The notes below the pieces were generated by a model. The model worked only from the letters and a program-made list of their open reading frames with translations. It made no database searches and was not told the DNA's origin. A stretch of 64,000 nt of DNA, taken from assembly GCA_051117475.1 (NCBI GenBank), contig JBNPEE010000032.1, positions 5,947 through 69,946 of the forward strand, written 5' to 3'. The DNA comes from Anaerolineae bacterium (GTDB lineage: Bacteria; Chloroflexota; Anaerolineae; Aggregatilineales; Phototrophicaceae). How positions within the stretch are numbered: the first letter of the stretch is position 1; each line of letters opens with the position of its first letter. This document shows positions 8,902-27,949 of the stretch, piece after piece. The position numbers and the translations under genes are program-made.

Positions 8902-8909
8902 GTTGTGTC

Positions 8910-11900: not shown

Positions 11901-14900
11901 GTATTGTTCATCATAGATATCATTGATCATTAGCACATGCGGGGTAGCGAGTTGCGCCCATGCCGGGAATTGTTCATAGTTGAATGATACGCCCAACAGA
12001 TCAAGGTCTATGTCAGATTGCCATGTGGCGACCACCTCAACCGTCGCAGCAGCTTGATCCCAGCTCGGACGATCCAACATCGCAATGAAGACCTGATTGA
12101 TATGTCCTTCGATCAGGTGTGTAGTGATTACGTCGATGATCTCTTCCGGTTCTGAGGTGTCGATCAACGCCTTGGATGCCTGATACAGCACGCTCGTCTC
12201 TTGCAGAGTACTCTGAACCTGACTGAGCAAGGACTGGTTATCCAGTACCACACTGGCGCTATCTGCGATGGTACTCAGATAGCGTTCTTCGCGGGTTGCG
12301 AATGTGCGGGGTTGCGTGTAGCCAATCAACAAACGCCCGCCTAACTCGCCCTGAATGCGTAGATTGATCGCCGCAAATGATAGGATATTCCCTGCCTGTG
12401 CAATTTCAACCTCAAATGGGCGGAGTGTACTGCGCGTGATATCTGCAACGAACAGACCGTCGCTACGCGGGAGGGGCAGTTGCATCAGCGCGTCGAGGTC
12501 TAAGCCGTTGGCTTCGCTCTCCTCAAAGCCAGATTTGAACATCACAGTCGGGTTGCCATCGCGAGCTAGCACGTAACCGGCACGCATATCCGGATTGAGT
12601 CCTTCTAACAGCGTGTCAATCGCTTGATACAGTTCTTCTGGATCACGGGCGCGACTGATCGAGGTGTTGGCATTATAGAGTGATTCCGTCTCTTCGAGTG
12701 CTAAGCGCGTGCTCTCAACTAGATAGAGGTTATCAATCGTTTGACTGGTCATATCCGCGATACTGTTGAGCGTGCGCTCTTGATCGAAGCCAAATGCTCC
12801 CACGCGCTCATCAATCAGCATCAACCATCCCAAGGGTTGCTGACGGCTACGCACTGTCAGAGGCATCACCAGCACCGAATGTGCGCCTGCTTCCGTGAGT
12901 ATGTGCCGCGCATCCTCGTCGAGCGTCTTATCTCGCGTAACATCTTCGATGTTGATCTCGTTGTTGTTCAAAATCGTGCCTAATGCGTCGATGTGGGGTA
13001 GGGGTTGTACCAGACTGCGTGCTAATTCGATTCCGTCATCATGATTGAGGAACAGGTGAATATCTGTCGTTTCTTGCATCGCTAACTGAGCGATTAATTC
13101 ATCGAGCAGATTGTCCAGCGTGTCAGCTTCGGTCAAGCCCTGTTGTGTCTCGTAAAGCATCACGGTCTCGCGCAGGTTCTCTTGCATGGTGTATTCCATA
13201 CTACGCAGGGTGCTGATATCCTGAAATGCCGCCACAATTGCGCGTAAGTTCTGGTTGCTGTCGAAGATCGGTGCCGCGCTGATGAACAGATCAACCTGAT
13301 GATCGTCGGATTGGATCACGATGTCATCTGCCGGCGCAACCTGTACACCTGTGTCGCGCACGATATACATCGGCAGTTCATCATCAGGATAGCCCCGGCT
13401 TGTGCCCGTGCGGTACATGCGATAATCACTCGCTGAGAAGGGCTTATCGAACAGAACCTCTTGCCCCAGTAATTGCGAGGCAATCGCATTGGTTGAAACA
13501 GGCTCTAGCGTGACAGGATCGAGCACCATCACACCCACCGGCAAGGTTGCCAGAATTTCATCGAGGCGTTGGCGTTCGTATTGTGTCTCGCGCAGGAGCA
13601 GCTGGTTCTCGATAGCAATCGTCACCTGATCGGCAATAGATTGCATGAAGCGCGTGTAATCTTCGGTGAGCAATCGCGGTTGATCGGTGCGGATAATCAG
13701 CACACCAAACCAACGCGAACGTGACCACAACGGCGCAATGACTGCGCTGCTAGCCTGATCGGCACTCAGAATCTCGCGCACCATTGGGAAGTCATCCGGC
13801 ACAGTATTCAGATCACGATAGACCAATAGACCGTCGTCGTTATTGGCGATCATCATGCCGAACGGCGCATCTTCTTGCGAGATGATCGTGCCTGTTTCAA
13901 TCTGTGGGGGTTGAGTGGGATCACTGTGCCACGTATATTCATAGCGCAATTGAGGCGCATGTAAACTTGGCTCCGGTTGTGCGAGCAGAAGCGTCAGCGA
14001 GATGTTCAAATCCTCATCACTGCGAGCACTCTGTTGGATGAAGGGTAATGCGAGATGACCGGCAACCGCGTCGTAGATGCCCTGTGTATCCTGCGCACTA
14101 GAGATGGCACGGGTGGCGATATAGAGACGGCGTACTTCGCTCAATGCCTGTTCGGTCTGTGTCAACAAGCTACGGTTCTGAATTTGTGTGCTCATCTGAC
14201 CGGTCAGCGCACGGTAGACTTCGTAATCATCCTGTGAAAGATCGTACAGATCGCGATTGACGATATAGAATATCGCAATGGGTGTATTATCGCTGAATAG
14301 CGGGAAAATCGCCATGAATTTGTAATTGAGATCGCGCATCCACTTGACCGCGGGCGGCACATCTTGAATATCTTCGCCAGGATCGACCAGGATTTCCGGC
14401 TCGCGCTGGCGCATCGGTGAATGTTCTGGCACGAAGAGCGGGTGTATTTCGTTGGCTTCTTGCACGTCACCCTGTGCCGATTTGGCAATGATGCGCGTCT
14501 GGTCTGTCCAATCGTCATGGACGGTCTCACCATCGAGCAACGCCAACCAGAAATCGAGATTCGGCTCGCTGGCGGTAGCCACCGCCGCAAACACTAGATC
14601 CAATAGGCTCTGCGAGGTGTTGATGATACGGCTGGCGGCGTAGAGTTTCTCCTGCCGCGTGAGTGCATCTTCGGTCTGTTGGAGTAGCAAGCGGTTATCA
14701 ATTGCCACACCCGCCTGTGCGATAAGGGCGTTGTAAATGCGCATCTCACGCTGGCTGAACAAGCGCCGTTCTGCGAAGGAGATCGTCATGAAGCCCTTCC
14801 ACGATCCGCGCATGTTCAATGGGATAACAATCAGTGAAGCGGCGTTGACGCTCTCGAAAAGCTGGCGCAAATCATCGCGCATCAAGCCTTGCTTCTGAAC

Positions 14901-17279
14901 ATCGCTGACTGCGACGACTGTCTCACCTGATAAATCTTTCATGAACGGGTAATGTGAGCGTTGCAAACGTCGCCCTAATAGCGAACTCTCTGCCTGTCTT
15001 TGAATCGCTAGATCAACCGTGATGTACAACCAGTCTGGCGTTTCACCCGGCAGAATATCATCGAATAACCACACCTGACCGCCGGAGGCATCGTTAGCAA
15101 CAGTGACAATCACCGCCTGTAGCACGTCTTCGAGATCGTTGGCTTCGTTCAATTGTCGGCTCAATTCATACAGTACCGATGTCTCGGCTAACGAGGTCTG
15201 CGTTTCCTGGAACAGACGCGCATTCTCAATCGCAAGCGAGACACGGTCTGCCACCGATTGCAAAATTTGCTGATCAGCATCGCTGAAGGCTTGTCCCTCC
15301 GGCAGATCTGCTTGCAAACTACCGACAATTTGACCGCGAATGCTAATATCTGCTTGGATCTTGGGCTGTTCAAGGGGTGCGCCATAAGACTGCTTGAGGT
15401 CTAAGCGCGATTCAAGCTCTTGCCATGCGTCCCGCGTTAGTTGGCGATTGAGCTTATCAATCTGCGCGATACGACGGTTACTCTGTTCGCGCAATTGGGC
15501 ATTATAGATCGCCACTGCTAACTGATCCGCGAGGAGCTGATACGTCGGGATATCTTGTGTGAGGAAAACCTGCGGAAGACGGCTCTGAATATCAAGCACG
15601 CCCAACAGCGCATCGCCAATCAGCAAGGGTAAGCCCATTTCAGCACGGGTTTCACCGAGCAAGGGATTAAAGCTGTGCGGGTCTTCTTTGCCTTCTAAGG
15701 TATCGTTGACAATCACTGCCCGTCGTTCAGCAGAGGCTGTACCGATCACCGTCTCTGAGCCAATTGCCAATTGATGTCCCTGTTCGATCAGGGCTTGTCC
15801 CGCTTCACCACGGCTATAGCGCAAGACTGCATAAGTCTGTGATTCGTCCAACAAGAAAATCTGGGCATGATAGAAACCCAGTTCGTTACAGATTAAGTTG
15901 ATGGCACGGTTGGCAAGTGTGTCGAGATCAATCAGTGTTGCAGTCTCGCGCCCGATGCGCCCTGCAACCTGCATATCACGGTTACGGCGCTCAGTCGCTT
16001 CATCAAGTTCTTCACTGAGGCGGTTGAGGCGCGTGCGGATGCGCCGTACAGCTCTCACGAATTCAACCTGATCACCGGTGGATTGCACGGTAATCGCACT
16101 ATCACGCATGGTAGTTTGCATCAGCGTATCGGCTTCATAGAGTGTATCGAGGCGCGGTTTGATGACGCGTTTGATACCCGTCACTAACAGAATAGGCAGA
16201 ATCATGCCGAACAGCGCAATCCCAAAAATCTGATACAAGGTCGGTGTATAATAGCTGATCGCATTATCGCTCAATATGAACGCCCAATTGAGCGGAACCA
16301 CGTTCTCGTAATTGCTCACAATGCTAGAGTAGAGCAGATTATTGTTCAAACGTTCCGCAATTTCTGTTGTGCCCGTCAGCGTATCGTCGAAGCTCAATAA
16401 TGTTTGATAATGAGCATCTGTTTCGATATTACCTCCCAACGCCGATAGATTGCGCAGGTAGGTAACACCTAATGCACCACTATCGGCGATGACACGGTCA
16501 TCATCCACCATCCAAATCACGCGCCGCGAATCACTGCCACTCGTTTCATCAACCAGATCGCCCACAGCCAGATTAACGATATTGCGTAACTGCGCTGTGT
16601 TGATTTGCAATTTGATGACCATCGCCGGCGTGGTATTATTGGTATAAATCGGCAAGAAAGCATCGACTAACACCACCGGCGTTTCAGCGTCAAGGTCTTG
16701 CAGGTAAAAATCACCCAGCGCGATCTCGCGAGTTGCGCCTGTTACAGCTAGATTGAACACCTCGGCTGATTCGGGCGGCGCGGTGTACGATGTGTCCACC
16801 GGATACACGAAAACGGATGAGGATGTGTTGTTGAGTACGCCGCGTTCGAAGGCGAGGAAGGGCTCACCATCCCTGATTTCGATGAATTGTACGGCTTGAT
16901 AAACGCCCGGATTTAACCGAATAATCTCCCCCGCACGCAAGGATGCCGCTGCGACGTTGGGCGTGATCAGGTGTTCACGCAAGCCTCGATCATTGCCCAA
17001 GCCGGTTAAATCCGAATAATAGCGATCAAGTTCGGTCTGCACAGCGCGCTCTACGCGATTAAGCCCACCCTCATGTTGCAAGGTGAGTTCTTCATAGGCC
17101 GTTGCCATAGTTGTTGAGATGCTGAGCGTGGTGAAGATGATCGCCGCAAGGCTAACCCCAATCCCGATCAAGCGCATGACCTGTTCAAGATAAGGGTTGT
17201 TGTCGGTACGATATGTCAGCGTTGGTTGGTCAGTTTGTTGTGTTCTCTGGTTCATAGTTGCTCCAACATCATAGCTCAC
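8910..17279 (-). CDS. giant hybrid sensor histidine kinase (TM - extracytoplasmic domain - TM - ~10 GAF-like modules + PAS - HisKA - HATPase - 2 receivers)
   Basis: 2789-aa ORF. TM helices at LIGIGVSLAAIIFTTLSI and IFGIALFGMILPILLVTGI flank ~290 aa. Repeated GAF-like modules each end in an [EDQ]N-x-x-L helix. A PAS-like segment reads LPVGVMVLDPVTLEPVSTN. The H-box is SMSHELRTPLNSIIGF, with the His codon at 10587-10589. N/G boxes are NLVTNAIKFT, DTGMGI and GGTGLGLPISK. Receivers lie at ~9297-9659 and ~8913-9296. The start is ambiguous: GTG 17279 overlaps the upstream stop as GTGA, while ATG 17255 has GGAG 5 nt upstream. Confidence 0.92.
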   Translation of the reverse strand: MSYDVGATMNQRTQQTDQPTLTYRTDNNPYLEQVMRLIGIGVSLAAIIFTTLSISTTMATAYEELTLQHEGGLNRVERAVQTELDRYYSDLTGLGNDRGLREHLITPNVAAASLRAGEIIRLNPGVYQAVQFIEIRDGEPFLAFERGVLNNTSSSVFVYPVDTSYTAPPESAEVFNLAVTGATREIALGDFYLQDLDAETPVVLVDAFLPIYTNNTTPAMVIKLQINTAQLRNIVNLAVGDLVDETSGSDSRRVIWMVDDDRVIADSGALGVTYLRNLSALGGNIETDAHYQTLLSFDDTLTGTTEIAERLNNNLLYSSIVSNYENVVPLNWAFILSDNAISYYTPTLYQIFGIALFGMILPILLVTGIKRVIKPRLDTLYEADTLMQTTMRDSAITVQSTGDQVEFVRAVRRIRTRLNRLSEELDEATERRNRDMQVAGRIGRETATLIDLDTLANRAINLICNELGFYHAQIFLLDESQTYAVLRYSRGEAGQALIEQGHQLAIGSETVIGTASAERRAVIVNDTLEGKEDPHSFNPLLGETRAEMGLPLLIGDALLGVLDIQSRLPQVFLTQDIPTYQLLADQLAVAIYNAQLREQSNRRIAQIDKLNRQLTRDAWQELESRLDLKQSYGAPLEQPKIQADISIRGQIVGSLQADLPEGQAFSDADQQILQSVADRVSLAIENARLFQETQTSLAETSVLYELSRQLNEANDLEDVLQAVIVTVANDASGGQVWLFDDILPGETPDWLYITVDLAIQRQAESSLLGRRLQRSHYPFMKDLSGETVVAVSDVQKQGLMRDDLRQLFESVNAASLIVIPLNMRGSWKGFMTISFAERRLFSQREMRIYNALIAQAGVAIDNRLLLQQTEDALTRQEKLYAASRIINTSQSLLDLVFAAVATASEPNLDFWLALLDGETVHDDWTDQTRIIAKSAQGDVQEANEIHPLFVPEHSPMRQREPEILVDPGEDIQDVPPAVKWMRDLNYKFMAIFPLFSDNTPIAIFYIVNRDLYDLSQDDYEVYRALTGQMSTQIQNRSLLTQTEQALSEVRRLYIATRAISSAQDTQGIYDAVAGHLALPFIQQSARSDEDLNISLTLLLAQPEPSLHAPQLRYEYTWHSDPTQPPQIETGTIISQEDAPFGMMIANNDDGLLVYRDLNTVPDDFPMVREILSADQASSAVIAPLWSRSRWFGVLIIRTDQPRLLTEDYTRFMQSIADQVTIAIENQLLLRETQYERQRLDEILATLPVGVMVLDPVTLEPVSTNAIASQLLGQEVLFDKPFSASDYRMYRTGTSRGYPDDELPMYIVRDTGVQVAPADDIVIQSDDHQVDLFISAAPIFDSNQNLRAIVAAFQDISTLRSMEYTMQENLRETVMLYETQQGLTEADTLDNLLDELIAQLAMQETTDIHLFLNHDDGIELARSLVQPLPHIDALGTILNNNEINIEDVTRDKTLDEDARHILTEAGAHSVLVMPLTVRSRQQPLGWLMLIDERVGAFGFDQERTLNSIADMTSQTIDNLYLVESTRLALEETESLYNANTSISRARDPEELYQAIDTLLEGLNPDMRAGYVLARDGNPTVMFKSGFEESEANGLDLDALMQLPLPRSDGLFVADITRSTLRPFEVEIAQAGNILSFAAINLRIQGELGGRLLIGYTQPRTFATREERYLSTIADSASVVLDNQSLLSQVQSTLQETSVLYQASKALIDTSEPEEIIDVITTHLIEGHINQVFIAMLDRPSWDQAAATVEVVATWQSDIDLDLLGVSFNYEQFPAWAQLATPHVLMINDIYDEQYGLNPMEQTSFESLDTRSVVIMPLRVTNRAIGVIWLGSNQPYSYDERDERIFQAFAEQTSLSLEAKRLLEQTQQRATQLQTSAVISQSVGQILDLDVLLPQVVDLIKQQFKYDHVQIFLMDSDNRWAVLRASTGEAGQKLLEIAHRLERGSSSVIGRVTELGEPTIALDTADAKVVHRPNPYLPMTRSEMALPMVVKGEIVGALDVQSNKANAFTDEDVQVLTTLASQIAVAIDNARLYESTQASAENMRFLFDTTSEAASADTLDEALAYVANRVRENSRADVVAMYLPQDYEDYYGNRKQLIEVAAIDSQSDITINSIPSIELNDAENMLGIVAVALRPQIIPNVEKEIRYMPISTQAQSAVVVPVTSGVKMVGIIVLESHRLNAYSGDELTLLQALAGSIGAIIQNTLLVEQLQESVEQLREVDRLKSQFLASMSHELRTPLNSIIGFSRVMLKGIDGPLTEMQEQDLTTIYNSGNHLLRLINDILDQAKIEANELNLKFGYFDMKPLVESVKSIAIGLLKEKPELRMLVEVAEGLPKVYGDEMRSRQVLLNLVTNAIKFTQEGTVTIDVYAVEGQEGPMIRVDVIDTGMGIAEKDLPTVFEQFRQVDNSLTRTVGGTGLGLPISKSLAEMQGGELTVVSEVNVGSTFSVTIPTYEGADTTLERLQQEKRQKQKPIAQNSQPNGTNDTASGLISRSDVEKAKQMANNARHKQHQPEATETQEVQRAQSRRIDTNITQNIPMVTQKRDVILVEDDKKMVDQFRRILQREGFEVTTADFPAFAEAMIGQLRPSVVILDVNFANGAGWNLLKNLKERDDTFDIPVVVTTLDEDSERAYRLGAHTFIQRPFLPDDVLEAVLEAEKESQRERILIIDDQPETIRLLTQLLEENSDFKIYSANSGDEGISLVARRRPDLIILDLRMPGKDGFAVLDELRDNPETAKIPVLVVTGEMDLSNAEQEQLIDIHVLHKTDISQEEYDIFLDNVRAYLNINGKKK

Positions 17280-19570
17280 TGCGCTGTGTCGTCAGGATGG
17301 TTGCCGTTCGGATAAGCATTATAGCCGTTGCCGTTACTGCTGTATCCGTCACTGGTAATCGCATCACCCAGGCGGATCGCTACCTGTGGTGTGCGTAAGG
17401 CTTGCTCGATCTCACGGATGGCGGTCTCCAAGATGGACTCGATGTCCGTCTGACTGGTGAGCTTCGTCGAAATATCGTTTACCATTCGCTCCCGCTCAGT
17501 TGCTTGCTGGCTGGCTTGGAACAAGCGTGCGTTCTCAAGGCTGATGCCTAACCGCGCCACCAGCTCTTGTGCTAGCAAGACCTTGTTATATTCAAATTCG
17601 CCTTCCGGCACTTCGTATTCAATCACACCCAGCACTTGATCACGCAATTTGACCGGCACAACGAAGGGGATTGTGTTACGGTCAGTTGCTTTGCCGACAA
17701 CCGCTTCGCCCGTTGTCAACACCTGTTCACGTAGCAGGTCGAAGTCATAACCCGTGTGCACACCGGAGGTCACCAGCAGGTCAGATTGCCGTTGTTGATA
17801 GAGATATTGTTGCCATGCACGGCGCGTCTCGCGAGCGCGTTCAGCTTGTACGGTCGTTAGCAGGCGTTCGGATTCCGTGTAGAGACGTGCGTTCTCAATC
17901 GCAATTGTGATCTGATCAGCGAGTGTCTCTAGCGTCGCAATTTCATCTGCATCAAAGCTGTTGCTCTGCTTACTTTGCACGTCTAACGCCCCGATGATTT
18001 TATCGCCTAAACGCAGAGGAATCGCGAGTTCTGCACGGGTTTCGCTCAAGAACTCGTTCTGACGATGCACGTTACTCTCGGCTGTATCACGCGCCACGAT
18101 CACCTGACCTTGCTCGGTCACCTGACCAATCACACTCACGCTACCCACACCAAGTTTGTGCCCGCGTGCCAGCAATTCCTTCCCTGCTGAGCCGGTACTC
18201 GCGCGTAACACAGCATATTTGCTTTCTCCATCCACCATGAATATTTGTGCGTGGTAAATGTTCGAGAAGTTATCGGTGATGAGCGTGACAACTTGCGTCA
18301 TCAGCTTGTTGAGATCGCGCTCACTGGTCACTGTTTTGGCAATATTCTGCGTGATTTGTACGTCACGAGTACGGTCTTGCAAACGACGCTCCATGTCGGT
18401 GATCAAATCGCGGGTGTATTCTCGCAGGTCAACAAAACTAGTCGCAAGATCACCTAGCTCATCCCCGCGTGTGACCGCGTTTACAGGGGTGTCGAAATCG
18501 CCACGGATCACTGCGAGGATGGCATCGCGCAGATTGCGGATTGGTGGGATGACTAGTTGGTTGGCAACCAACAAACCAATCAATACGACGAATATCGTGA
18601 ACGCCAGCCCGAACACAAATGCCTGCCCGATGAATTGCTGGCGTACCACGTTGAATGCCGTACTGGTGTTGGCTTCAGTCACCAGCGCGAATTGTTGATT
18701 GTCAATGGTGATCGTTGACGTATAGCCTGCGACCTGCCGGCGGGTCGTCTCATCATCGCCCACATCATAGATGCTCACACTGCTGGCACGGTTGCTGAGT
18801 GCGCGCTGTGCGCCTACCGAGTTCACATCGAACAAGGCATCATCGATCACATTTGAGGGGGCGATGATAACATTCTCAGCGCCAGTTGGCACAATCAAAT
18901 AAGCGTACAAATCCAATTCATTTTCGTTGGCATCGGGCACTAAACTATCGATGAACACGGTCTCGATGTCCAGCGTAACCAGCAAATAACCGCGTAACTC
19001 AGATGTACCATCTGCACTTACAGCGCGCACTGCGGTGAGAATTGACCAGCTGGGTACATTACCGTCATTGTTGACGATGAAAACTTGTGTGTCAGTTGTT
19101 CCGCTCAATCGGTCTGCATACTGGCTGATGAGGGCACGCTGATCTTGAATGTCTGCTTGTTGGAGTGGGGCATCGCCTGCAATCACGCTCTGACGATATT
19201 GTAGATCAAGCAATTGTGCGCTTTCGAAGAAGGGTTGCTCGATCAACTGTGTGTTGAGTGCCTGTTCAAGATTACCCGCTACATCAGCGAAGGCTAGCTC
19301 CGGATTGTCACTCTCGACCTCTAATTGTAAGTTCATCAGCGTGCCGTTGACCGCGATAAACTCACTGATGTTACTCAGCGTTGTTTGAATGTTGCGCTGG
19401 ATGGCGCTCTCACGGCGCGTCCCGTTCTCGGTGACGGAGCGCTCTAAGTTGGTAATTGTGATACCACTGACCGTCTGGAACATCAACACGCCCAGCAGAA
19501 TTAACGGCAGAGTAACCGCTACAACGATGATTGCGTTGATCTTTGTCGATAAACCGAAATTGAACGTCAT
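17276..19570 (-). CDS. membrane sensor protein: TM - extracytoplasmic (Cache-like?) domain - TM - HAMP - GAF - accessory module - C-terminal stub; no output domain
   Basis: TM1 is IIVVAVTLPLILLGVLMF, followed by ~270 extracytoplasmic aa and TM2 (FVFGLAFTIFVVLIGLLVANQL). A HAMP-like segment reads PPIRNLRDAILAVIRGDF...GDELGDLATSFVDL. The GAF signature is IYHAQIFMVDGESKYAVLRASTGSAGKELLARGHKLGVGSVSVIG. The ATG overlaps the upstream stop (ATGA). Confidence 0.88.
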   Translation of the reverse strand: MTFNFGLSTKINAIIVVAVTLPLILLGVLMFQTVSGITITNLERSVTENGTRRESAIQRNIQTTLSNISEFIAVNGTLMNLQLEVESDNPELAFADVAGNLEQALNTQLIEQPFFESAQLLDLQYRQSVIAGDAPLQQADIQDQRALISQYADRLSGTTDTQVFIVNNDGNVPSWSILTAVRAVSADGTSELRGYLLVTLDIETVFIDSLVPDANENELDLYAYLIVPTGAENVIIAPSNVIDDALFDVNSVGAQRALSNRASSVSIYDVGDDETTRRQVAGYTSTITIDNQQFALVTEANTSTAFNVVRQQFIGQAFVFGLAFTIFVVLIGLLVANQLVIPPIRNLRDAILAVIRGDFDTPVNAVTRGDELGDLATSFVDLREYTRDLITDMERRLQDRTRDVQITQNIAKTVTSERDLNKLMTQVVTLITDNFSNIYHAQIFMVDGESKYAVLRASTGSAGKELLARGHKLGVGSVSVIGQVTEQGQVIVARDTAESNVHRQNEFLSETRAELAIPLRLGDKIIGALDVQSKQSNSFDADEIATLETLADQITIAIENARLYTESERLLTTVQAERARETRRAWQQYLYQQRQSDLLVTSGVHTGYDFDLLREQVLTTGEAVVGKATDRNTIPFVVPVKLRDQVLGVIEYEVPEGEFEYNKVLLAQELVARLGISLENARLFQASQQATERERMVNDISTKLTSQTDIESILETAIREIEQALRTPQVAIRLGDAITSDGYSSNGNGYNAYPNGNHPDDTAQ

Positions 19571-21219
19571 GACGTGACCTCACCCTCACCAATGACCTGT
19601 ACGTCGGGTTTGAGGCGGATCTGTGTTTGTACTGCGCCCAATGCCTCATTGAAGTTTTGCGCGGCTAATTCTAGTACGGTGTTAATATCTGTCGATGTTA
19701 GGAGCAAATTGCCGATCTGATTGGCTTTGCTCTCGCGTTGTGCCTGTGCTTGGTTTTGCTCAAATAGGCGCTTGTTTTCCAGCGCGAGCGAGAGCCGTTG
19801 TACCACGTTCTGGATGAGATCATGCTCGCGGGCGTTCAAGCTGTCATTGCCTGCCGGCAAACGGAAAGACATCGCGCCGATGGTCTGCTGGCGTAACTGG
19901 ATGGGCACACGTACCACTTGCTGATCGCCATCCTGCTCAACTGTGATGTCGCCGGTAGCGAGTGCGCTTTGAAGATCATTACCCATGCTGGTGGATTCGA
20001 CAGGCTCAGCAGTCAAAGAGGGCAGATCATAACCCAGATGTGATACGCCCAACTCTTTGAGATAGGTTGTCCAGCTCTCAGTTGTGGTCTGGCGCTCAGC
20101 ATCTTCATATTGGCGGATGCGTTGACGCTGGCGCTCAATTACAGCGTCTTGTTCTTGAATGTTCTGGCGCAAGTTGGTGATCAAGCGCGATTGTGCGAGT
20201 GATTGCCCCAGTTGTAACGCGACCATTTGCAGTGTTTGCAATTCTGTGGTCGCAAAGCTGTTTTGATCTTCACTCTGCACGTCAATGATGGCGATGACTT
20301 GCCCCTGTTGATCGGTGACAGGAATTGCCAGTGCGCCCCGCGTGCCGGTCAGCAGGTGCTGGCGCAGTAAGATGTCGTCACTCTCCTCAATTATCAGCGT
20401 TTCGCCACGGCGCATCGCTTCATGTAGACCACTACGTGTATCTAAAGTCAGTTTACTCTCGATGTTGATCTGTTGTAAGTTCAAGCCACTCTGGACACGT
20501 TGTACAATCTCCCCATTATCAACCATATAGACGCGGGCGAACGTGTAGCGCAATTGGTCGCGAATGATCGAGATGGTGGTGAAGATCGCACGGCGTTCAT
20601 CGCTCTCCTGACGTGTCGAGAGCGTGCCTTCGATGATTTGCTGTAGGCGGTTGCGCTCAGTGATGAACTGTGCCGCCGCCTGCTGAATCGTCGTGCCAAA
20701 CATGAATACCAGTACATTGAGGGTGAATAGCAAAATAGTTGCCGTGAAGAACTGCTCCGGTAGGTTGTTGTTGACCAGTGTTGGCCCTGTTAGCAAACCG
20801 ATGACTACCAGGAAGATCAGCACTGTAGAACGCCGTCCCAGCAACAGACCTGCGGTCACGATGGGCACGACGTAAGTCAATACCAGCACATCTGCAATCG
20901 TCTCTGCACTCCACAAGCCTAACGGTGAGATCAAACTCATGCCAAGGATGCCGAATGCCCCGATCCGGTAAAAGCCCTGACGCACCATCCCGAATAATAT
21001 CAATACCAGAAACGGGCTGAGTATGCCGAAAACGCTTGCAGTGTTCAGGTCAATTTCTGGCAGGGTATTGATGAACTGTGCCGTCAGAAAGACGGATGCA
21101 ATCACCGCAATGACAAAACCTGCCATCAAATATAGCAATAAGCTCCGCACCTGTTGCCATCTGATCGGGTCATCGTATGTCCCACGGGGTTGAGTGAGAG
21201 CGTATAATCTATTGAACAT
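19567..21219 (-). CDS. polytopic membrane GAF protein (paralog D), no output domain
   Basis: The preferred start is ATG 21219 (MFNRLYALTQ), with GGAGG 8 nt upstream. The longer ORF to 21393 would overlap the preceding gene by 185 nt. The protein has about 6 TM helices with a VRQGF motif, then a GAF-like domain, a coiled coil, the accessory module and the conserved C-terminal tail. Confidence 0.85.
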   Translation of the reverse strand: MFNRLYALTQPRGTYDDPIRWQQVRSLLLYLMAGFVIAVIASVFLTAQFINTLPEIDLNTASVFGILSPFLVLILFGMVRQGFYRIGAFGILGMSLISPLGLWSAETIADVLVLTYVVPIVTAGLLLGRRSTVLIFLVVIGLLTGPTLVNNNLPEQFFTATILLFTLNVLVFMFGTTIQQAAAQFITERNRLQQIIEGTLSTRQESDERRAIFTTISIIRDQLRYTFARVYMVDNGEIVQRVQSGLNLQQINIESKLTLDTRSGLHEAMRRGETLIIEESDDILLRQHLLTGTRGALAIPVTDQQGQVIAIIDVQSEDQNSFATTELQTLQMVALQLGQSLAQSRLITNLRQNIQEQDAVIERQRQRIRQYEDAERQTTTESWTTYLKELGVSHLGYDLPSLTAEPVESTSMGNDLQSALATGDITVEQDGDQQVVRVPIQLRQQTIGAMSFRLPAGNDSLNAREHDLIQNVVQRLSLALENKRLFEQNQAQAQRESKANQIGNLLLTSTDINTVLELAAQNFNEALGAVQTQIRLKPDVQVIGEGEVTS

Positions 21220-22903
21220 CCGCTTGACCTCCATTAGCATCTGCTGTGGACATTTGCTCTGTGTCGGGGGTGTCGTCCTGTATCGCCCCCAGGCGTATCG
21301 AAGCCTGTGATGCACCGAGCGTTTCGGCCAGCCCCTGTAAAGTGACACGCAACATCTCATCCACTGAATCCACTGCTTGATATTGCGATACAATCTCGTT
21401 CACGCGTTGTTCTTGCGCGGTGGCTTCGTTCGACTCTTCAAACAAACGAGCATTGTCGAGGCTGACCGCTAACCGTTGCGAGACGTTGCGTACCATGTCG
21501 GCCATATCATCTTGCTGTTGGTTGGAGCTCGTTTCGATCTCAATTGCGCCGATCACCTCACCGCGTAATTCAATCGGTACGGCTACTTTCCGTTTGTCCG
21601 CTTGCGTATCAATGATGGCGCGTCGGCGTTGGCTGGCGCTGACCATCTCCTCTGACCAATCCGCTGAGTTCGAGAATGTGTTGCCGGCTAAGGTCACGCC
21701 GTCAATGCGTCGATTGGAGCTTAAATACTCATCCCAGGCTTGTTTGGTCAACTGTCGATTGAGCCGCTGAATCTCGCGCAAGTTCATCTCTGAGTCGAGG
21801 AATAAGCGCTTGTTCTCTTCGATATTGCGCTCTTTATCTTCGAATAAACGTGCGTTGCGGATAGCAGTCGCAAGCTGGTTGGCAATCACTTTGAGCGCTT
21901 CGATCTCATTTTTGCTGAAGGCATCTGCCAGACGGCTCTGAATATCCACCACACCGATGATGCCGTTGTTATCGAGGATTGGAACAGCAAGCTCTGATCG
22001 GGTATACGGCAACAACTCGTTGAAGGCGCGTCCTTCACTGTCGCTGTCACGGGCGATGATGACCTCCTGCGATTGTGCGGAACGCCCTACCACGCTCTCA
22101 GGGTTGATTGCTAGCTGATGTTCACGGGCTAACATGCGCTCGCCGACTTCGCCTGTGCTGGCGTGTAAACGGGCATAGGTCAATTCAGGGTCAACCAGAA
22201 ATACGGACACATGATAGAATGCAAAGCGATCACGGATGATATCCACCACGCGCTCCAGCAAGGTGTCGAGATCGAGCATTTCCGAGACGGTGCGCCCAAT
22301 ATCGGCACTTGCCGCTAGCAAACGCGCTGAGCGCTGGGCTTCTAGCGTTGTTTCTTCCATCGTATTGATGACATAGCGTGCCATCAGGCTGATGACAATC
22401 GGCGCGAAGCCTAGCAACAGCGCCTGTGATGGATAGGCGTTCAACACGGCATTTTCACTTGTTGCGTTGATCGCAGTCACGCTGAACACGATTAATAAAT
22501 AGGCACTATTGAACACCCAGAACGCCAACGGACGCGATAAGAACGCGATCAACAGTGCGACCACACTCAACAAGAGATAAAGTGTGATGATCTCTTGAGT
22601 GGTGCTGTAGATTATGACAACGATTACCAGCGCAAAGCCACTGACGATTGTGCTCACTAGCTCGACCAGATAGCCCTGTCGGACTAAGATCAGCAAGCCC
22701 ACTGATAACACACTCGCGACCAGTGTGACAGATACCAGCTGATTGTTAGAGGAGGGTAGCGCGTTCGCTAATCCAGTAAGAAATAGGGCAGTACTCGCGA
22801 GCATCAGCACGCCTAATGCTGCTTGCAATAATCGTGCGCGAAGTCTCGAGATAATAGTCTCCGCGTCACGTTGATTGAGCGTTGAAGTCTTTTGGATTTG
22901 CAT
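21209..22903 (-). CDS. polytopic membrane GAF protein (paralog C), no output domain
   Basis: About 6 TM helices carry LILVRQGYLVE. The GAF signature is FYHVSVFLVDPELTYARLHASTGEVGERMLAREHQLAINPESVVG. The accessory module reads QAWDEYL...VAVPIELRGEVIGAIEIE...DNARLFEES, and the C-terminal tail ends in SIRLG. Confidence 0.88.
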   Translation of the reverse strand: MQIQKTSTLNQRDAETIISRLRARLLQAALGVLMLASTALFLTGLANALPSSNNQLVSVTLVASVLSVGLLILVRQGYLVELVSTIVSGFALVIVVIIYSTTQEIITLYLLLSVVALLIAFLSRPLAFWVFNSAYLLIVFSVTAINATSENAVLNAYPSQALLLGFAPIVISLMARYVINTMEETTLEAQRSARLLAASADIGRTVSEMLDLDTLLERVVDIIRDRFAFYHVSVFLVDPELTYARLHASTGEVGERMLAREHQLAINPESVVGRSAQSQEVIIARDSDSEGRAFNELLPYTRSELAVPILDNNGIIGVVDIQSRLADAFSKNEIEALKVIANQLATAIRNARLFEDKERNIEENKRLFLDSEMNLREIQRLNRQLTKQAWDEYLSSNRRIDGVTLAGNTFSNSADWSEEMVSASQRRRAIIDTQADKRKVAVPIELRGEVIGAIEIETSSNQQQDDMADMVRNVSQRLAVSLDNARLFEESNEATAQEQRVNEIVSQYQAVDSVDEMLRVTLQGLAETLGASQASIRLGAIQDDTPDTEQMSTADANGGQADVQ

Positions 22904-22908
22904 GTGGG

Positions 22909-24567
22909 TTAGCTATCCTTCCCATTGCTCTTGCTCGGGCGATCTGGTGCACCGAGGCGGATCATCACTTTTTCCGCACTGAGGGTATCGCCAATACTGC
23001 GGGCGGCTTCTGCCAATGTCGCTTCGACATTCTGCGCTGACTGGAAGCGACTGGTGATCTGGTTGATGAGCGTCTCGCGCTGTGCCGTGCGACGGCTTTC
23101 CTCGACCAGGCGCGTGTTCTCTGCTGCTAGCCCGAACCGTTCACTCACTTCAAGGAGCAGTTCCAAATCTTCCTGTGTAATGTGTTGCGCCTCGTCTAAC
23201 TCAAACTCCATCGCACCGACAACCTGCCCACGCACGCGCAATGGCACAGCGATCACATTATCCATCTGCACAATTTGATTCTGCTCGGTGGCATTTAGCA
23301 AGCCCTCTGTCCATGCGTGATAAGCCTCACTTTGGTTGGTGCTGAAATCAATGGCGATGCCTGGTTCTTCACCCATATGTTGAATATGCTCTGACCACGC
23401 TCGCCCGATCAAACGCTGGTTCAGGCGTTCTACTTCGCGCAATGCTGAACGAGTCTGTTCTGCTAAACGCTGATTTTCTTCAACCTGTGCTTGTGCCTGT
23501 TCAAATTGTTGAATGCTGTCAATCGCCAACGATAGACTGTTCGCTAATGATTGAAAGGTCAAGCGGTCATCTCTGTTGAGTTCGGTTAGCGTCTTACTCT
23601 GCAAATCGAGCGCACCGATGATGCGCGTGCCAACCCGCAAAGGGAAAGCGGCTTCTAATGTGGTATCAGGTAATAACTCATTGGTACGATGAACGCCGTC
23701 TTTTTCGCTACTGAGGGCGATGACCGGTTCACCGGTCAGCGTTGTTTGCCCGATCACGCTCAAACTGCCGACTGCTAGACTGTGTGACCGTTCGATCAGC
23801 TTCTGACCCGCCTCGCCCGTGCTGGCGCTCAAACGCGCTTGAATGCCGTCATTATCGAGCAAGAAGATCTGTGCATGATACATCTGCGGGTAGTTCTGGA
23901 GGATCAGTTGCAAGGTGGTGTTGAGCGCACTATCCAGAGATTGGCGCGTGGAAGCCTGTTGGGTGATGTACATGTTTACTTCTGCCAGTTTGATACGTTC
24001 CTGACTCTCTAGTGTTTGCCCTTTAATCTGGCTAGCCGCAACAAATTGATTATAGGCATAGACCATCAACCCGATCACCACATAAATTGTTGATAGGGTC
24101 AGGCGCACCGGCCATTCATAATTGCCTGTATCTAGGTAGCCGTTGATGGCGGGGAAGAGCAGTGTTTGCCCGATGGCAACAGCCCCGAATAGCACGATGC
24201 CAGGTGTCTCCAGCAAAAAACCACCCATGAGGATTAATAGCGCGACGTTCAGGATCTGGCGGGGCATCAGGATGCCGTCCGGTAAGTTAGCCGACACGCT
24301 GATGCTCGCCATGCCGATCAACAAAATCCAACTGCCCAGTTTAAAATAACCCTGTCGCACGAGGACATACACGCCCAGCGTGATCGCAATGCCGATGAAA
24401 GGCGCGATAGACGCAAGTGCAATCCCGGCAATGTTGCCGATGACAGATAGGATGAGCAACATAATAGTAACCATGAACAGCAAGCCGTAGACAATCGTCA
24501 CCCGTAAACGGTCACTGCGGTTACTGTAGGCGCTGGTGTTCAGGTAGAGATTGAGAAGCTGTTCCAT
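22909..24567 (-). CDS. polytopic membrane GAF protein (paralog B), no output domain
   Basis: About 6 TM helices carry YVLVRQGYFKL. The GAF signature is MYHAQIFLLDNDGIQARLSASTGEAGQKLIERSHSLAVGSLSVIG. The accessory module reads RAWSEHI...IAVPLRVRGQVVGAMEFE...ENTRLVEES, and the tail ends in MIRLG. The start is 2 nt after the upstream stop. Confidence 0.88.
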   Translation of the reverse strand: MEQLLNLYLNTSAYSNRSDRLRVTIVYGLLFMVTIMLLILSVIGNIAGIALASIAPFIGIAITLGVYVLVRQGYFKLGSWILLIGMASISVSANLPDGILMPRQILNVALLILMGGFLLETPGIVLFGAVAIGQTLLFPAINGYLDTGNYEWPVRLTLSTIYVVIGLMVYAYNQFVAASQIKGQTLESQERIKLAEVNMYITQQASTRQSLDSALNTTLQLILQNYPQMYHAQIFLLDNDGIQARLSASTGEAGQKLIERSHSLAVGSLSVIGQTTLTGEPVIALSSEKDGVHRTNELLPDTTLEAAFPLRVGTRIIGALDLQSKTLTELNRDDRLTFQSLANSLSLAIDSIQQFEQAQAQVEENQRLAEQTRSALREVERLNQRLIGRAWSEHIQHMGEEPGIAIDFSTNQSEAYHAWTEGLLNATEQNQIVQMDNVIAVPLRVRGQVVGAMEFELDEAQHITQEDLELLLEVSERFGLAAENTRLVEESRRTAQRETLINQITSRFQSAQNVEATLAEAARSIGDTLSAEKVMIRLGAPDRPSKSNGKDS

Positions 24568-24569
24568 AA

Positions 24570-26687
24570 TTATTGGTCTCCAACCGTTGGTGATGGTCTG
24601 ATGCCCAGACGAATCCGTGCTTTCTTGGCGCCGATAGCTTTGCCTAGCTCGTGCGCGGTGACGTTCAAGATATCATGGACGTCAATTTGCTCCTGTAGCT
24701 TGCCGATGATCTCGTTAGCCTGAGTTTTGTTGTGTGCCAGTCGTAAGCTCTGTGAGTAAGCATTCGCATTCGAGAGCGCAATCGCCAGCTGGTTTCCGAT
24801 CTGGCGTAAGGTGTTGGCATCAGTGGCATTGTAGTGATGCGCTTCTGCACTGCCAATTTCTAATATACCCAGCATCCCGTCTGCCAGCGAGAGCGGCATC
24901 ACCATCAGCGATTGTATGGCGCGTTGTTGTGGGTGTTTCCAGCTCCAATCTGTGTTCAGATCCGCAATGTGCACCAATTGTTTGTCGTTGAGCACTTGTT
25001 CGGCAATGGTGTTCTCACTCTGATCCATACGTTGCGCGGGTTGGATGATTTCACGCTCACCCTGTAAATATTGTGCGTGTTTGAACAAACTGGCGCTGTT
25101 TGGCTCGTATAACAAAACACCGAGGTAATCCACACTCAGCACATCTGGCGCGTAAGTCAGTGTGGTGCGTAAAATGTCCTCTTGCGAGAGATGTGCACGC
25201 AAGGCTTGCCCAAAATTAGTCAGGCGTTCGAGTTGTTGTGCTTTTTGCTGAGATTCGGATAACAACCGAACATTCTGTAAACTGAGCGCAATTTGCCCGA
25301 CGATGGTTTCGGCAGTGTCGATCACCCGTTGCTCAATCTGGGCTTGTTGGGTGTAATAATCCAGCCCGACACTGCCGATGAGCGCGTTGTTCTCATCAAA
25401 CATCGGGATCACAATCAAGGACTTAATGCCGACAGAGAGCAAATAATCCCGCGTGTTTTGTTCGAGTGCATCATAATTGGCAAGGTCTGTGATGATAAGT
25501 GCCTTACCGCTTTCCTCAATTATGCGGTCAATGGCGCTACCCGGTTCGATCTCATCACCAACGAGGTCTTGCGCAGGGGCTTCGCCGACGACGACGTTGC
25601 TATTGCCAGAGCGAATGATAATGCCGACATGATCAACACCTGTGATCTCATACAGCACATCAGCCGTCTGTTGTAAGATCGGCTGATCGATTTTGTGGCG
25701 GTTGGCTTGTGCGATGAGTTGGTTGAGCAAGCTCAGCACGCGCACCTGCTCATCGGAGCGTGACGCGCTCTGTTGTGTGCGTTCGAGCAGGCGTTGTCGC
25801 TCTACCACAATCGTGGCTTGATGCGCGATATTCTGATATAGCTCTTTCTCCAACGTCGTCGGCGCGAGTGACCGTGTGGTGTCACATAGGCAGATAAACG
25901 CTGTTAATCGCTGATCCAGCCACATCGGCATCACATACATGGATCGGATCTGTTGCGATTGCAACCAGACTTTCGCGTCATCGGTGAAGCGCGCTTCCTG
26001 TTGCACGTCGGTGAGCAACACTTCGCCGACTTCCAACAACAGCGTGTGCAATTCCCGCACCGCCGAGAGGTTGATATTCATCTTCAAATCGGTCTGATAG
26101 GCATTATGGCGGTTTGCTGTGCCGATCACACGCCCCCCCACAACCTGATCATCGTAGTCGTATTCAAATAAGTTCATGCTGACGAATTGTTGTTTCTGCA
26201 CGATATTCTCAGCGATTACCTGCGCCACATCACTCAAAGATGCGACCATGCTCAGTTTGCCCGTTGTCGCAATCTGTTTGTGCAATAGGTCTTGTACTTG
26301 TTGGGTATAAACCAGCAAGCTGAGATCCAGCGCGAGATCGGCTAAGGTATCTTGCTCAATTGTGCCGGTGATGACTAATAACGCAAATGGTGCTTGCTGA
26401 TAAATCAGCGGAGCGATCCATTGCTGAACGGCGTGGTCTTCGATAATCATCTGCTCATCGAGTGCCTGTTGCCAGAGTGCATCGGGCTCAAGGGAAATGA
26501 ACACGCCATCACGGTGTGTACTCTGTTCGCCGTGCCACAGCATCACCCCACCCGGTGCAATGCGGAATACTTCCGCCCCGCGCACCATCTCCAATTCACC
26601 GACAATCTGTGCCAGCGCTCGATCCAATAATTGTTCAGGCGTATGGATGTCCGCTTGGGTTTGCAAACCACGCAATGTCAAAGTCAT
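24570..26687 (-). CDS. soluble multi-GAF protein (about four GAF-like modules), no TM and no output domain
   Basis: 705-aa ORF with no obvious hydrophobic helices. Repeated GAF-like terminal helices are present (IVVERQRLLERTQ, ALSLQNVRLLSESQ, AIALSNANAYSQS). It has the same 51-residue C-terminal tail, ending in RIRLG. Confidence 0.82.
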   Translation of the reverse strand: MTLTLRGLQTQADIHTPEQLLDRALAQIVGELEMVRGAEVFRIAPGGVMLWHGEQSTHRDGVFISLEPDALWQQALDEQMIIEDHAVQQWIAPLIYQQAPFALLVITGTIEQDTLADLALDLSLLVYTQQVQDLLHKQIATTGKLSMVASLSDVAQVIAENIVQKQQFVSMNLFEYDYDDQVVGGRVIGTANRHNAYQTDLKMNINLSAVRELHTLLLEVGEVLLTDVQQEARFTDDAKVWLQSQQIRSMYVMPMWLDQRLTAFICLCDTTRSLAPTTLEKELYQNIAHQATIVVERQRLLERTQQSASRSDEQVRVLSLLNQLIAQANRHKIDQPILQQTADVLYEITGVDHVGIIIRSGNSNVVVGEAPAQDLVGDEIEPGSAIDRIIEESGKALIITDLANYDALEQNTRDYLLSVGIKSLIVIPMFDENNALIGSVGLDYYTQQAQIEQRVIDTAETIVGQIALSLQNVRLLSESQQKAQQLERLTNFGQALRAHLSQEDILRTTLTYAPDVLSVDYLGVLLYEPNSASLFKHAQYLQGEREIIQPAQRMDQSENTIAEQVLNDKQLVHIADLNTDWSWKHPQQRAIQSLMVMPLSLADGMLGILEIGSAEAHHYNATDANTLRQIGNQLAIALSNANAYSQSLRLAHNKTQANEIIGKLQEQIDVHDILNVTAHELGKAIGAKKARIRLGIRPSPTVGDQ

Positions 26688-26719: not shown

Positions 26720-27142
26720 TCACTGCCATTCCCACACTTGTTCACCAGCGAGCAAGCGTTTGATTTGATCGGGGAAACGGTCAGGATCGAGTGGCTTACC
26801 CAGAAAACCATCAAAACCGCTCTTCTGAGCGCGACGCATCTGATCTTCGCTCGCTTCGGCGGTCACAGCACACACGATGGTATCTTGCAACTTCGGGTTC
26901 GAGCGTACTTTTTGTAATGCCTGATAGCCATCTTCGTAGGGCAAGCGAATATCCATCAAGATCAAATCGATGCGTGGCAAGGTCTCGGCAAATTGTACCA
27001 CCTGCCAACCGGACGTCTTCCATTCACAGCGTTGCACACCCATGAATGCTAACATCCGTGCAATCAGAACAAAATTCGGGACATTATCCTCAACAACTAG
27101 CACATGTGCTTCGTTCGGTTCAATAGCGTTTAATTTTGACAT
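26720..27142 (-). CDS. single-domain response regulator (receiver only)
   Basis: Receiver motifs HVLVVEDN, DLILMDIRLPYEDG, VCAVTAEA and LGKP are present. Length is 140 aa with no output domain. AGGAAG precedes the ATG. Confidence 0.9.
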   Translation of the reverse strand: MSKLNAIEPNEAHVLVVEDNVPNFVLIARMLAFMGVQRCEWKTSGWQVVQFAETLPRIDLILMDIRLPYEDGYQALQKVRSNPKLQDTIVCAVTAEASEDQMRRAQKSGFDGFLGKPLDPDRFPDQIKRLLAGEQVWEWQ

Positions 27143-27154
27143 GACTTCCTTTAC

Positions 27155-27514
27155 CTAGAGATACTGTGATAATTCCTCAACAAAAGTATCAACTTCTATC
27201 GGTTTGCTGATATACCCGTCACAACCCGCTTCGAGGATCATCTCACGATCTCCATGCATAGCATTGGCGGTGAGGGCGATAATGGTCAGATTAGCAATGC
27301 CTGGAATGGCACGAATGCGATTCGTTGCTTCCAACCCATTCATATCCGGCATCGCAATATCCATCAAGATTAAATCCGGCGGGTTGCTCTCAGCCATGTT
27401 AATACCATCCTGAGCATTGTCAGCTTCTTCCATCTCAAAGCCTTCCGCTGCCAGAATTCGTTTAACCAACAAACGGTTGGCAAAATCGTCATCAATATAC
27501 AGAATACGTGGCAT
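27155..27514 (-). CDS. single-domain response regulator (CheY-like receiver only)
   Basis: The preferred start is ATG 27514 (MPRILYIDDD), with GGAGG 6 nt upstream. Receiver motifs are DLILMDIAMPDMNG, IIALTANA and ISKP. The 21-codon upstream extension in the ORF track lacks support. Confidence 0.9.
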   Translation of the reverse strand: MPRILYIDDDFANRLLVKRILAAEGFEMEEADNAQDGINMAESNPPDLILMDIAMPDMNGLEATNRIRAIPGIANLTIIALTANAMHGDREMILEAGCDGYISKPIEVDTFVEELSQYL

Positions 27515-27949
27515 GATAATCCTCCTACTGTTACTGATGGGACAGGTGATCATACACGTCCAGCAACAGTCGCCCATTCGTGGACTGTTTACTCACTCCA
27601 TTATAGTATAGTCGTCGAATACGGTTCTCAGCATAAACGTTTTGTCAATCTCTCAATTATAGGGGGCTTAAAAAGTTCCTTGCCACCTTCTGCTGGCAAT
27701 TTCTAACCTAAAATAACCTCTATACTGACCATTTTCCTGTGTGGCGGGTACGATAGCACCATACAGAAACCTCTATTCTATTGTAAGCAGATTTTCTAAT
27801 GGTGCTCAAGCATGTGTGTGGTTGGTTGAGGATTTATGTTAGTTTTTGATGATGATCGGCTAACCCTCCGTAGCACACCGCAACAGTCAGTGCTAAGATG
27901 AAGCTGTGAGTTATATACAATTAATTTGATAACCCTAGGGAGTTTTCTG

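Follow-up and report, generated by a model that had tools for sequence, protein, structure and literature searches.

A GAF domain head without a body forms the conserved C-terminal tail of five consecutive sensor proteins encoded ahead of a giant hybrid kinase in an Anaerolineae bacterium

How do sensor proteins that lack an output domain pass on their signals? The question is raised by the window analysed here, i.e. the whole 64-kb stretch (64,000 nucleotides) of contig JBNPEE010000032.1 from an Anaerolineae bacterium, which carries on its minus strand one long gene row for two receivers, five proteins here called A, B, C, D and E, and a giant hybrid kinase, K. A Pfam and NCBIfam domain search detected no recognisable output domain in A-E, and K is the only catalytic output encoded after them. 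What A-E share is their end: a tail of 51 residues that aligns without gaps and fits N-x-I-x13-L-x17-IRL[G/K], behind which 10-29 polar residues of variable sequence lead to the stop codon. We find that this tail is the head of a GAF domain of the phytochrome/cyanobacteriochrome class, composed of connector helix α1, helix α2 and strand β1. We suggest, with a confidence that we would place at about even, that it functions as a conserved free-standing C-terminal end module, a GAF head without the rest of the domain, that forms the output or docking tip of sensors without enzymatic output.

The tails lie on the minus strand at 24603..24755 (A, residues 645-695, ending ARIRLG), 22951..23103 (B, residues 489-539, VMIRLG), 21287..21439 (C, residues 489-539, ASIRLG), 19609..19761 (D, TQIRLK) and 17366..17518 (E, residues 685-735, VAIRLG). 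MAFFT aligns them without a gap together with the 12 residues that precede each of them, and N14, I16, L30 and IRL48-50 of the tail are invariant, as is the N of the preceding EN-x-x-L helix. The regular expression N.I.{13}L.{17}IRL, run against the six-frame translation of the 64-kb window, gave exactly five matches, all in the A-E tails, and none elsewhere. These results bear out the initial annotation of this DNA, which had described five consecutive proteins with the same ungapped tail, the same invariant positions and a short, variable polar end after IRL[G/K]. The strict IRLG is local to the window: in orthologous operons the tails end in IHIG, IHLG, IRLL, IVLQ, VRLQ or IKLA, and further in VHLR, LRFH, IYVG, IELR, ISLT or ITLR, so that the conserved feature, as judged from these sequences, is an alternating hydrophobic (amphipathic) strand, often with a basic residue, and not the literal IRLG. 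Hydrophobic columns 4/5, 11/12, 18/19, 24/25 and 32 of the tail alignment repeat every seven residues across the junction between α5, the helix just before the tail, and α1, and this unbroken heptad pattern is that of a signalling helix or coiled-coil spine. Helix α2 is amphipathic, and in the last segment hydrophobic positions alternate as in a strand.

The assignment to the GAF head is based on a profile of 38 tails that was searched against all PDB sequences. Its matches are confined to the N-terminal helix-helix-strand of phytochrome/cyanobacteriochrome-class GAF domains, namely 8w26 (residues 13-53 and 191-251, E 3e-10), 6oap (residues 126-180, E 1e-7), 2lb5 (residues 13-53, E 4e-5) and 6bhn (residues 3-41, E 4e-5), with 3oov, 6ozb, 6xhg, 5zoh, 3w2z and 7lsc next, and thus show that the tail is homologous in sequence to the beginning of genuine GAF domains. 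It is the head only: Pfam gives no GAF match over the A-E tails, a complete GAF domain (PF01590, PF13185 or PF13492), which would add five more strands and the closing helix α5 to the head, is not present there, and neither Pfam nor NCBIfam has a model for the tail. The heads of solved phytochrome and cyanobacteriochrome GAF domains (2LB5, 6BHN, 6OAP, 8W26, 3W2Z) resemble it both in the succession helix-helix-strand and in sequence pattern, the tail reading '..aLiNeIs.rlq.s.dve.iL.eaa.eL.eaLgA.rV.Irl' and the cyanobacteriochromes 'LinrI..qIRqSLdLdqIL.ttV.EVR.fL..DRVkVYrF'. However, the solved domains continue into β2-β6 and a bilin or ligand pocket, whereas A-E stop 10-29 polar residues after β1 and have no body, Cys or pocket. 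A photosensory GAF domain of this class has its bilin-binding pocket, with the conserved Cys and the DXCF/Asp motifs, in the GAF body. As no such body follows the stub, it is not a photosensory GAF domain, and on the evidence of the sequences A-E are related to the class by the head only and are not photoreceptors. The profile matches, together with the structural model of B and the natural fusions discussed below, uphold the proposal of the initial annotation that the tail corresponds to a GAF domain truncated behind its first strand, a proposal that hinged on a resemblance to a GAF N-terminus. As a possible function, that annotation had put forward docking, strand exchange or capping by which A-E could be connected to one another or to the kinase.

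A different element, the DHp hairpin of HisKA kinases, is found at the same place after the last sensor helix and has a similar helix-turn-helix, and a four-helix bundle in a dimer is conceivable for the tail as well. In contrast to DHp, the tail has no phospho-acceptor His box (H-E-L-R-T-P-L), its α2 has only ~16 residues, with a strand behind it, where DHp has a long second helix, and it is homologous to GAF heads. A DHp-like reading was rejected given that the sequence at the place of the His box is NEISSRLQ and that A-E have no HisKA match.

Are the five tails related to one another more closely than any two GAF heads? A hidden Markov model (HMM) built from B orthologues of other genomes only, with no window sequence included, matches the tails of the window at their exact positions (E, 41 bits; A and D, 24.7 bits; C, 23.5 bits) and none of the ~20 other GAF N-termini in A-E or in the three kinases of the window. 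By this profile, the five tails are therefore specifically related to one another, beyond GAF-likeness. Similarly, the tail profile does not match the other GAF heads of the window proteins, and an origin of the tails as recent copies of K's third GAF head was rejected because none of K's GAF heads is matched. The initial annotation had pointed to a segment of K as the equivalent of the tail; this holds by position (K residues 691-741) but not by sequence, the segment scoring -0.8 bits with the tail profile. An hhalign comparison of the B-family tail with the head of GAF1 in B itself was not significant, the alignment being shallow (Neff ~2.5) and GAF1 having a head of a different class.

Conservation of the tail was analysed first of all for B. 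With B residues 360-552 as query, 382 relatives were retrieved; among the 120 of these that were listed nearly all end in the tail plus 6-39 polar residues, 92 of the 120 with exact IRLG. The orthologues of A (457-1072 aa) end in the tail as well, and so does one dCache-HAMP-GAF protein. Within the B family the mean frequency of the majority residue is 0.77 in the tail (45% of columns at ≥90%), 0.64 in GAF1, 0.59 in module 2 (the GAF-like body in front of the tail, see below), 0.34 in the polar end and 0.33 in the transmembrane (TM) region; only the 12-residue helix α5 is more conserved than the tail (0.92). In species-representative genomes, all B orthologues are found in metagenome-assembled genomes (MAGs) of Anaerolineae-class Chloroflexota, the closest one in a Phototrophicaceae MAG with 80% identity. 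The entire row, which begins with the two receivers (RR) and reads RR-RR-A-B-C-D-E-K, is syntenic in six other Anaerolineae assemblies (L001, L003, L004, L043, L044 and L045). In the five of these in which the genes were read (the fragmented L004 was left out) every A-E orthologue keeps the terminal stub, each of the five orthologue groups has its own tail signature that is kept across assemblies, and K in each of them shows no stub over its first ~1400 residues. The tail is, then, kept in orthologues, on which its interest as a functional element had been made to depend.

Beyond this operon, the tail profile has 11,894 matches at E≤1e-3 among 1.84 billion representative proteins, and the stub is common in Chloroflexota. 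Among the best 140 matches the stub is the end of the protein in 73, and stub-ending proteins include multi-GAF chains of up to 2,697 residues without a kinase core at their end. Terminal stubs have a median score of 59 bits compared to 19 bits for ordinary internal GAF-GAF linkers. A few internal stubs score like terminal ones (P0187, P0196, P0228, P0248, P0268, P0160, P0216 and P0266), and these directly precede a module 2 and not an ordinary GAF domain.

These data bear on the possibility that the stub is a passive cap, which would merely stabilise the last helix or coiled coil and be a leftover of a truncated multi-GAF kinase, without a partner or a role in signalling. B-E do resemble the N-terminal part of a kinase of the K type, with sensor, GAF, coiled coil and module 2, that was truncated directly past the next head, and P0228 ends in GLPSGEA, its own internal linker, as if arrays were simply cut there. 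P0228 (366 aa) consists of near-identical ~115-residue units (head, 16-residue linker, β-hairpin, helix), and the sequence of its internal linker is the same as that of the protein's end; judging from these repeats it looks like a recent tandem duplication that illustrates how arrays may grow and where they may be cut. A passive leftover is difficult to reconcile with a tail that is more conserved than the ligand-binding GAF domain and far more than the polar end, with terminal stubs forming a distinct high-scoring class compared to internal linkers, and with orthologue-specific signatures that are maintained across six or more genomes. Moreover, a recent truncation of K does not account for the tail, as its profile matches none of K's GAF heads. 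We consider a purely passive role improbable.

Additional information comes from an AlphaFold2 (AF2) model of full-length B that was made from a 69-sequence alignment and has a mean predicted local distance difference test (pLDDT) score of 90. In this model GAF1 is followed by a 66-residue helix, a five-stranded module 2 and then the elements of the tail: a single helix (residues 465-510) spans both the ENTRLV helix (α5) and the first helix of the tail, a second helix covers residues 514-529, and an extended, unpaired segment covers residues 530-539 (pLDDT 72-75), while the polar end has low confidence (pLDDT 40-54). The tail is thus predicted as helix, helix and extended segment and not as a disordered end, and Foldseek places the model among tandem GAF and GAF-PHY proteins. 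At tandem GAF junctions of known structure (PDE2A, 3IBJ; PDE5A, 3LFV; PDE6; GAF-PHY of SyB-Cph1, 8W26) a continuous α5-α1 helix connects the two domains as it connects module 2 and tail in B, and in known tandem GAF proteins this helix is the spine of a parallel dimer. The difference is that in the phosphodiesterases and SyB-Cph1 the helix always enters a second complete domain, whereas in A-E it enters only α2 and β1.

Combining the alignment, the model and these comparisons, we suggest that A-E would be parallel dimers, like other tandem GAF proteins, and that the last helix of the preceding module would run unbroken, in heptad register, into α1 and in that way extend the coiled-coil spine. 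Helix α2 would fold back to generate a small helical bundle on which the amphipathic strand (V-x-I-x-L) would be exposed. In this scheme, conformational signals from the TM, HAMP and GAF sensor parts may reach the tip and then be relayed by protein-protein contact, the likeliest partners being K or other paralogues. Several points weigh against the stub as a free-standing end module. The dimer, the bundle and the partner are extrapolated from monomer models, in which the confidence for the tail is only moderate (pLDDT 72-75) and its contacts are read from DSSP assignments and pLDDT only. Also, a free amphipathic strand, together with the retention of residues that face the core in a GAF domain, would be unusual if the stub never met a GAF body. 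Finally, the numbers of heads and bodies in the operon, to which we turn now, fit complementation at least as well.

The module that precedes the tail in B, residues 386-488 at 23104..23412 on the minus strand, is entered from a coiled coil (...NQRLIGRAW) and comprises five strands and helix α5 (ENTRLV). Corresponding headless GAF-like bodies are encoded on the same strand in C (21440..21751), D (19762..20085) and E (17519..17827), and a short one is found in K (15210..15440, residues 614-690, LTRDAWQEL...ENARLF), where the next element is an ordinary GAF domain and not a tail-type stub. In B-E and in K a coiled coil (...NRQLT..AW..Y) leads into module 2 with no head before it. The head is instead behind module 2 in B-E, and in A it is behind a complete GAF domain (Pfam GAF_2, residues 500-638). 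Counted over the whole operon, five heads lack a body (those of A-E) and five bodies lack a head (those of B-E and of K). In profile comparisons with solved GAF domains the last ~50 residues of module 2 match the C-terminal third of domains of the DosT/DevS type and the first half matches nothing; likewise, hhalign within B aligns only the last 48-57 residues of module 2 with GAF1.

That head and body belong together is indicated by proteins in which they are fused in the usual order. An AF2 model of residues 538-788 of one natural fusion, P0196 (pLDDT 85), shows the internal RGWIRL as a six-residue strand (E68-73, pLDDT ~93) that is followed by five further strands and a closing helix, resulting in a complete six-stranded GAF-like fold for which the best Foldseek match is the GAF-PHY pair of SyB-Cph1 (8w26, E 1.8e-11, 235 columns). 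The second, terminal stub of the same protein (VVIRLG) remains coil and unpaired. Based on the natural fusions, the fold of the P0196 model and the Foldseek match, the stub is the true head of a GAF-like domain whose body is module 2.

If so, does the stub complete the module 2 that precedes it? A circular permutation in cis, in which the tail strand inserts into module 2 of its own chain or of the partner in a homodimer, would agree with module 2 and tail jointly holding all elements of a GAF domain. When the tail is put before module 2, the permuted sequences match Pfam GAF over the full length, positions 1-133, in C (2e-5) and E (2e-3), a slight gain over the native order that is too small to decide the matter. 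In addition, the succession coiled coil, module 2 and stub is a very common supermodule, and the linkers behind internal stubs are long, polar and variable, resembling domain boundaries. The model of B is at odds with this arrangement: α5 and α1 remain one 46-residue helix, IRLG is unpaired, and the unbroken heptad register places the strand ~40 Ångström below the sheet. Moreover, the stub also occurs after a complete GAF domain, in A and in at least eight large proteins checked by eye, implying that it does not exist to complete the preceding module, and P0196, the body of which is already satisfied by the upstream stub, still keeps a second stub at its end. Given the continuous helix in heptad register, the stubs behind complete GAF domains and the redundant stub of P0196, we regard completion of the preceding module in cis as unlikely, and permutation as the least probable of the explanations that we considered.

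Alternatively, the stub could act in trans, as the plug of a split GAF domain that lends its α1-α2-β1 to a socket, the latter being a headless module 2 in one of the other proteins. A-E and K would then belong to one defined hetero-complex, e.g. a chain A>B>C>D>E>K, or with A bound to K. At each interface two chains would together restore a GAF-like domain, linking four membrane sensors and a soluble one in a defined order to one kinase, and signals would be integrated via the reconstituted domains rather than by phosphotransfer. The fusions and the P0196 model, in which stub and module 2 combine into a complete GAF-like domain and the IRL strand is part of the sheet, are consistent with such a complex, and so are the coiled-coil entry into the headless modules 2 of B-E and K, the five-to-five count of heads and bodies, and the occurrence of the same five paralogues and K in the same order in six other assemblies; the tail signatures of the individual orthologues could encode specificity. 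However, in 48 of 83 stub-ending proteins an HMM found no full headless module 2 in the chain, although this model undercounts and the tally is no safe guide in either direction, and AF2 folds module 2 of B confidently with a five-stranded sheet in the absence of a head. Geometry is also a concern, as B, C and D have the same layout, which would put the sockets one layer nearer to the membrane than the plugs, and the sockets would be clamped between two coiled coils, making insertion sterically awkward. Taken together, we find complementation in trans rather unlikely, though worth keeping in sight, and favor the free-standing end module.

A cluster from another organism (L005; ENA ERZ28653468 scaffold_2909, 1-22866) favors neither of these two readings. 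Its six consecutive proteins, which include two dCache-HAMP-GAF proteins and one 2041-aa PAS/GAF protein, all end in coiled coil, module 2 and stub, the module being headless and the stub terminal in each. The modules 2 of all six were recognised by eye, and hence the module 2 HMM undercounts.

The partial unit at the end of the chain is reminiscent of terminal caps in repeat proteins and of the 'velcro' closure of β-propellers, in which a partial unit is likewise retained at the end of an array with a sequence repeat that is out of step with the structural domain. The resemblance may not extend to a pairing of the last partial unit with a first one in the same chain, and the first GAF domain of A has its own head. 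A full-text literature search on circularly permuted, partial, truncated or split GAF domains and on tandem-GAF sensors of Chloroflexi yielded nothing relevant. New here are the natural fusions of stub and module 2 with the AF2 model, the difference in score that separates terminal from internal stubs, and the matching numbers of heads and headless bodies in a strictly conserved operon.

Thousands of proteins of Chloroflexota with TM, Cache, HAMP, PAS and GAF sensor parts have no recognisable output, and their annotation says no more than 'GAF domain-containing protein'. Where an output domain would be expected, the stub is the sole element that these sensors have in common, and it is more conserved than the sensor domains. 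Identification of its binding partner would explain how large sensor arrays signal and, in the operon described here, how five sensors feed into one giant kinase, which in turn appears to control a ThrC-receiver enzyme. Should complementation in trans turn out to be correct, these would be natural signalling proteins assembled by domain complementation and would provide a ready-made split-domain tool.

The genes of the row, all on the minus strand, are arranged as follows. Two stand-alone receiver genes (27155-27577 and 26720-27142) stand at the start of the conserved operon. They are followed by A (24570-26687), a protein of 705 aa with three GAF domains and no TM segment; by B (22909-24567, 552 aa), C (21209-22903, 564 aa) and D (19567-21219, 550 aa), three polytopic membrane proteins with one GAF domain each; and by E (17276-19570, 764 aa) with TM, HAMP and GAF parts. 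K (8910-17279) has 2789 aa with at least five Pfam GAF domains, HisKA (residues 2222-2288), HATPase_c and two receivers. In the list of open reading frames D begins further upstream, with a TTG (21393); an ATG (21219, MFNRLYAL...) with GGAGG before it is the likely start, and from there D shares 11 nt with the end of C. At E/D and K/E the overlap is 4 nt, which suggests translational coupling along the row. We also considered read-through or frameshifting into the next gene but rejected it, since adjacent genes differ in frame and the following protein begins with TM helices.

Across the conserved rows A varies from 441 to 1225 aa and the sizes of B-E are constant. A cyclophilin gene is located on the opposite strand just upstream of the row in L001, L003, L004 and L043. 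In L004 (JGI 3300076002, 8353-21598) the operon is split into many short open reading frames (fragments of A, D, E and K), which are probably due to frameshift errors in the assembly rather than real pseudogenes. Outside Chloroflexota, the closest sequences to module 2 plus tail (L038, Pyrinomonadales; L040/L041, cyanobacteria) run on into a full GAF domain, reading ..SYIRLF.. and ..GGLLCM.. at the strand with no stop there. Lastly, the exit of the coiled coil has a motif of its own, L-N-[RQK]-[RQ]-L-[TI]-x-x-A-W-x-x-[YL], that precedes every headless module 2 (23380-23412 in B, 21720-21751 in C and 15414-15440 in K, with the weaker forms ...RRAWQQYL in E and ...ESWTTYL in D) and is also present in unrelated stub-ending proteins in variants such as H-R-x-Y-L-R-x-x-W-Q-D-H-L.

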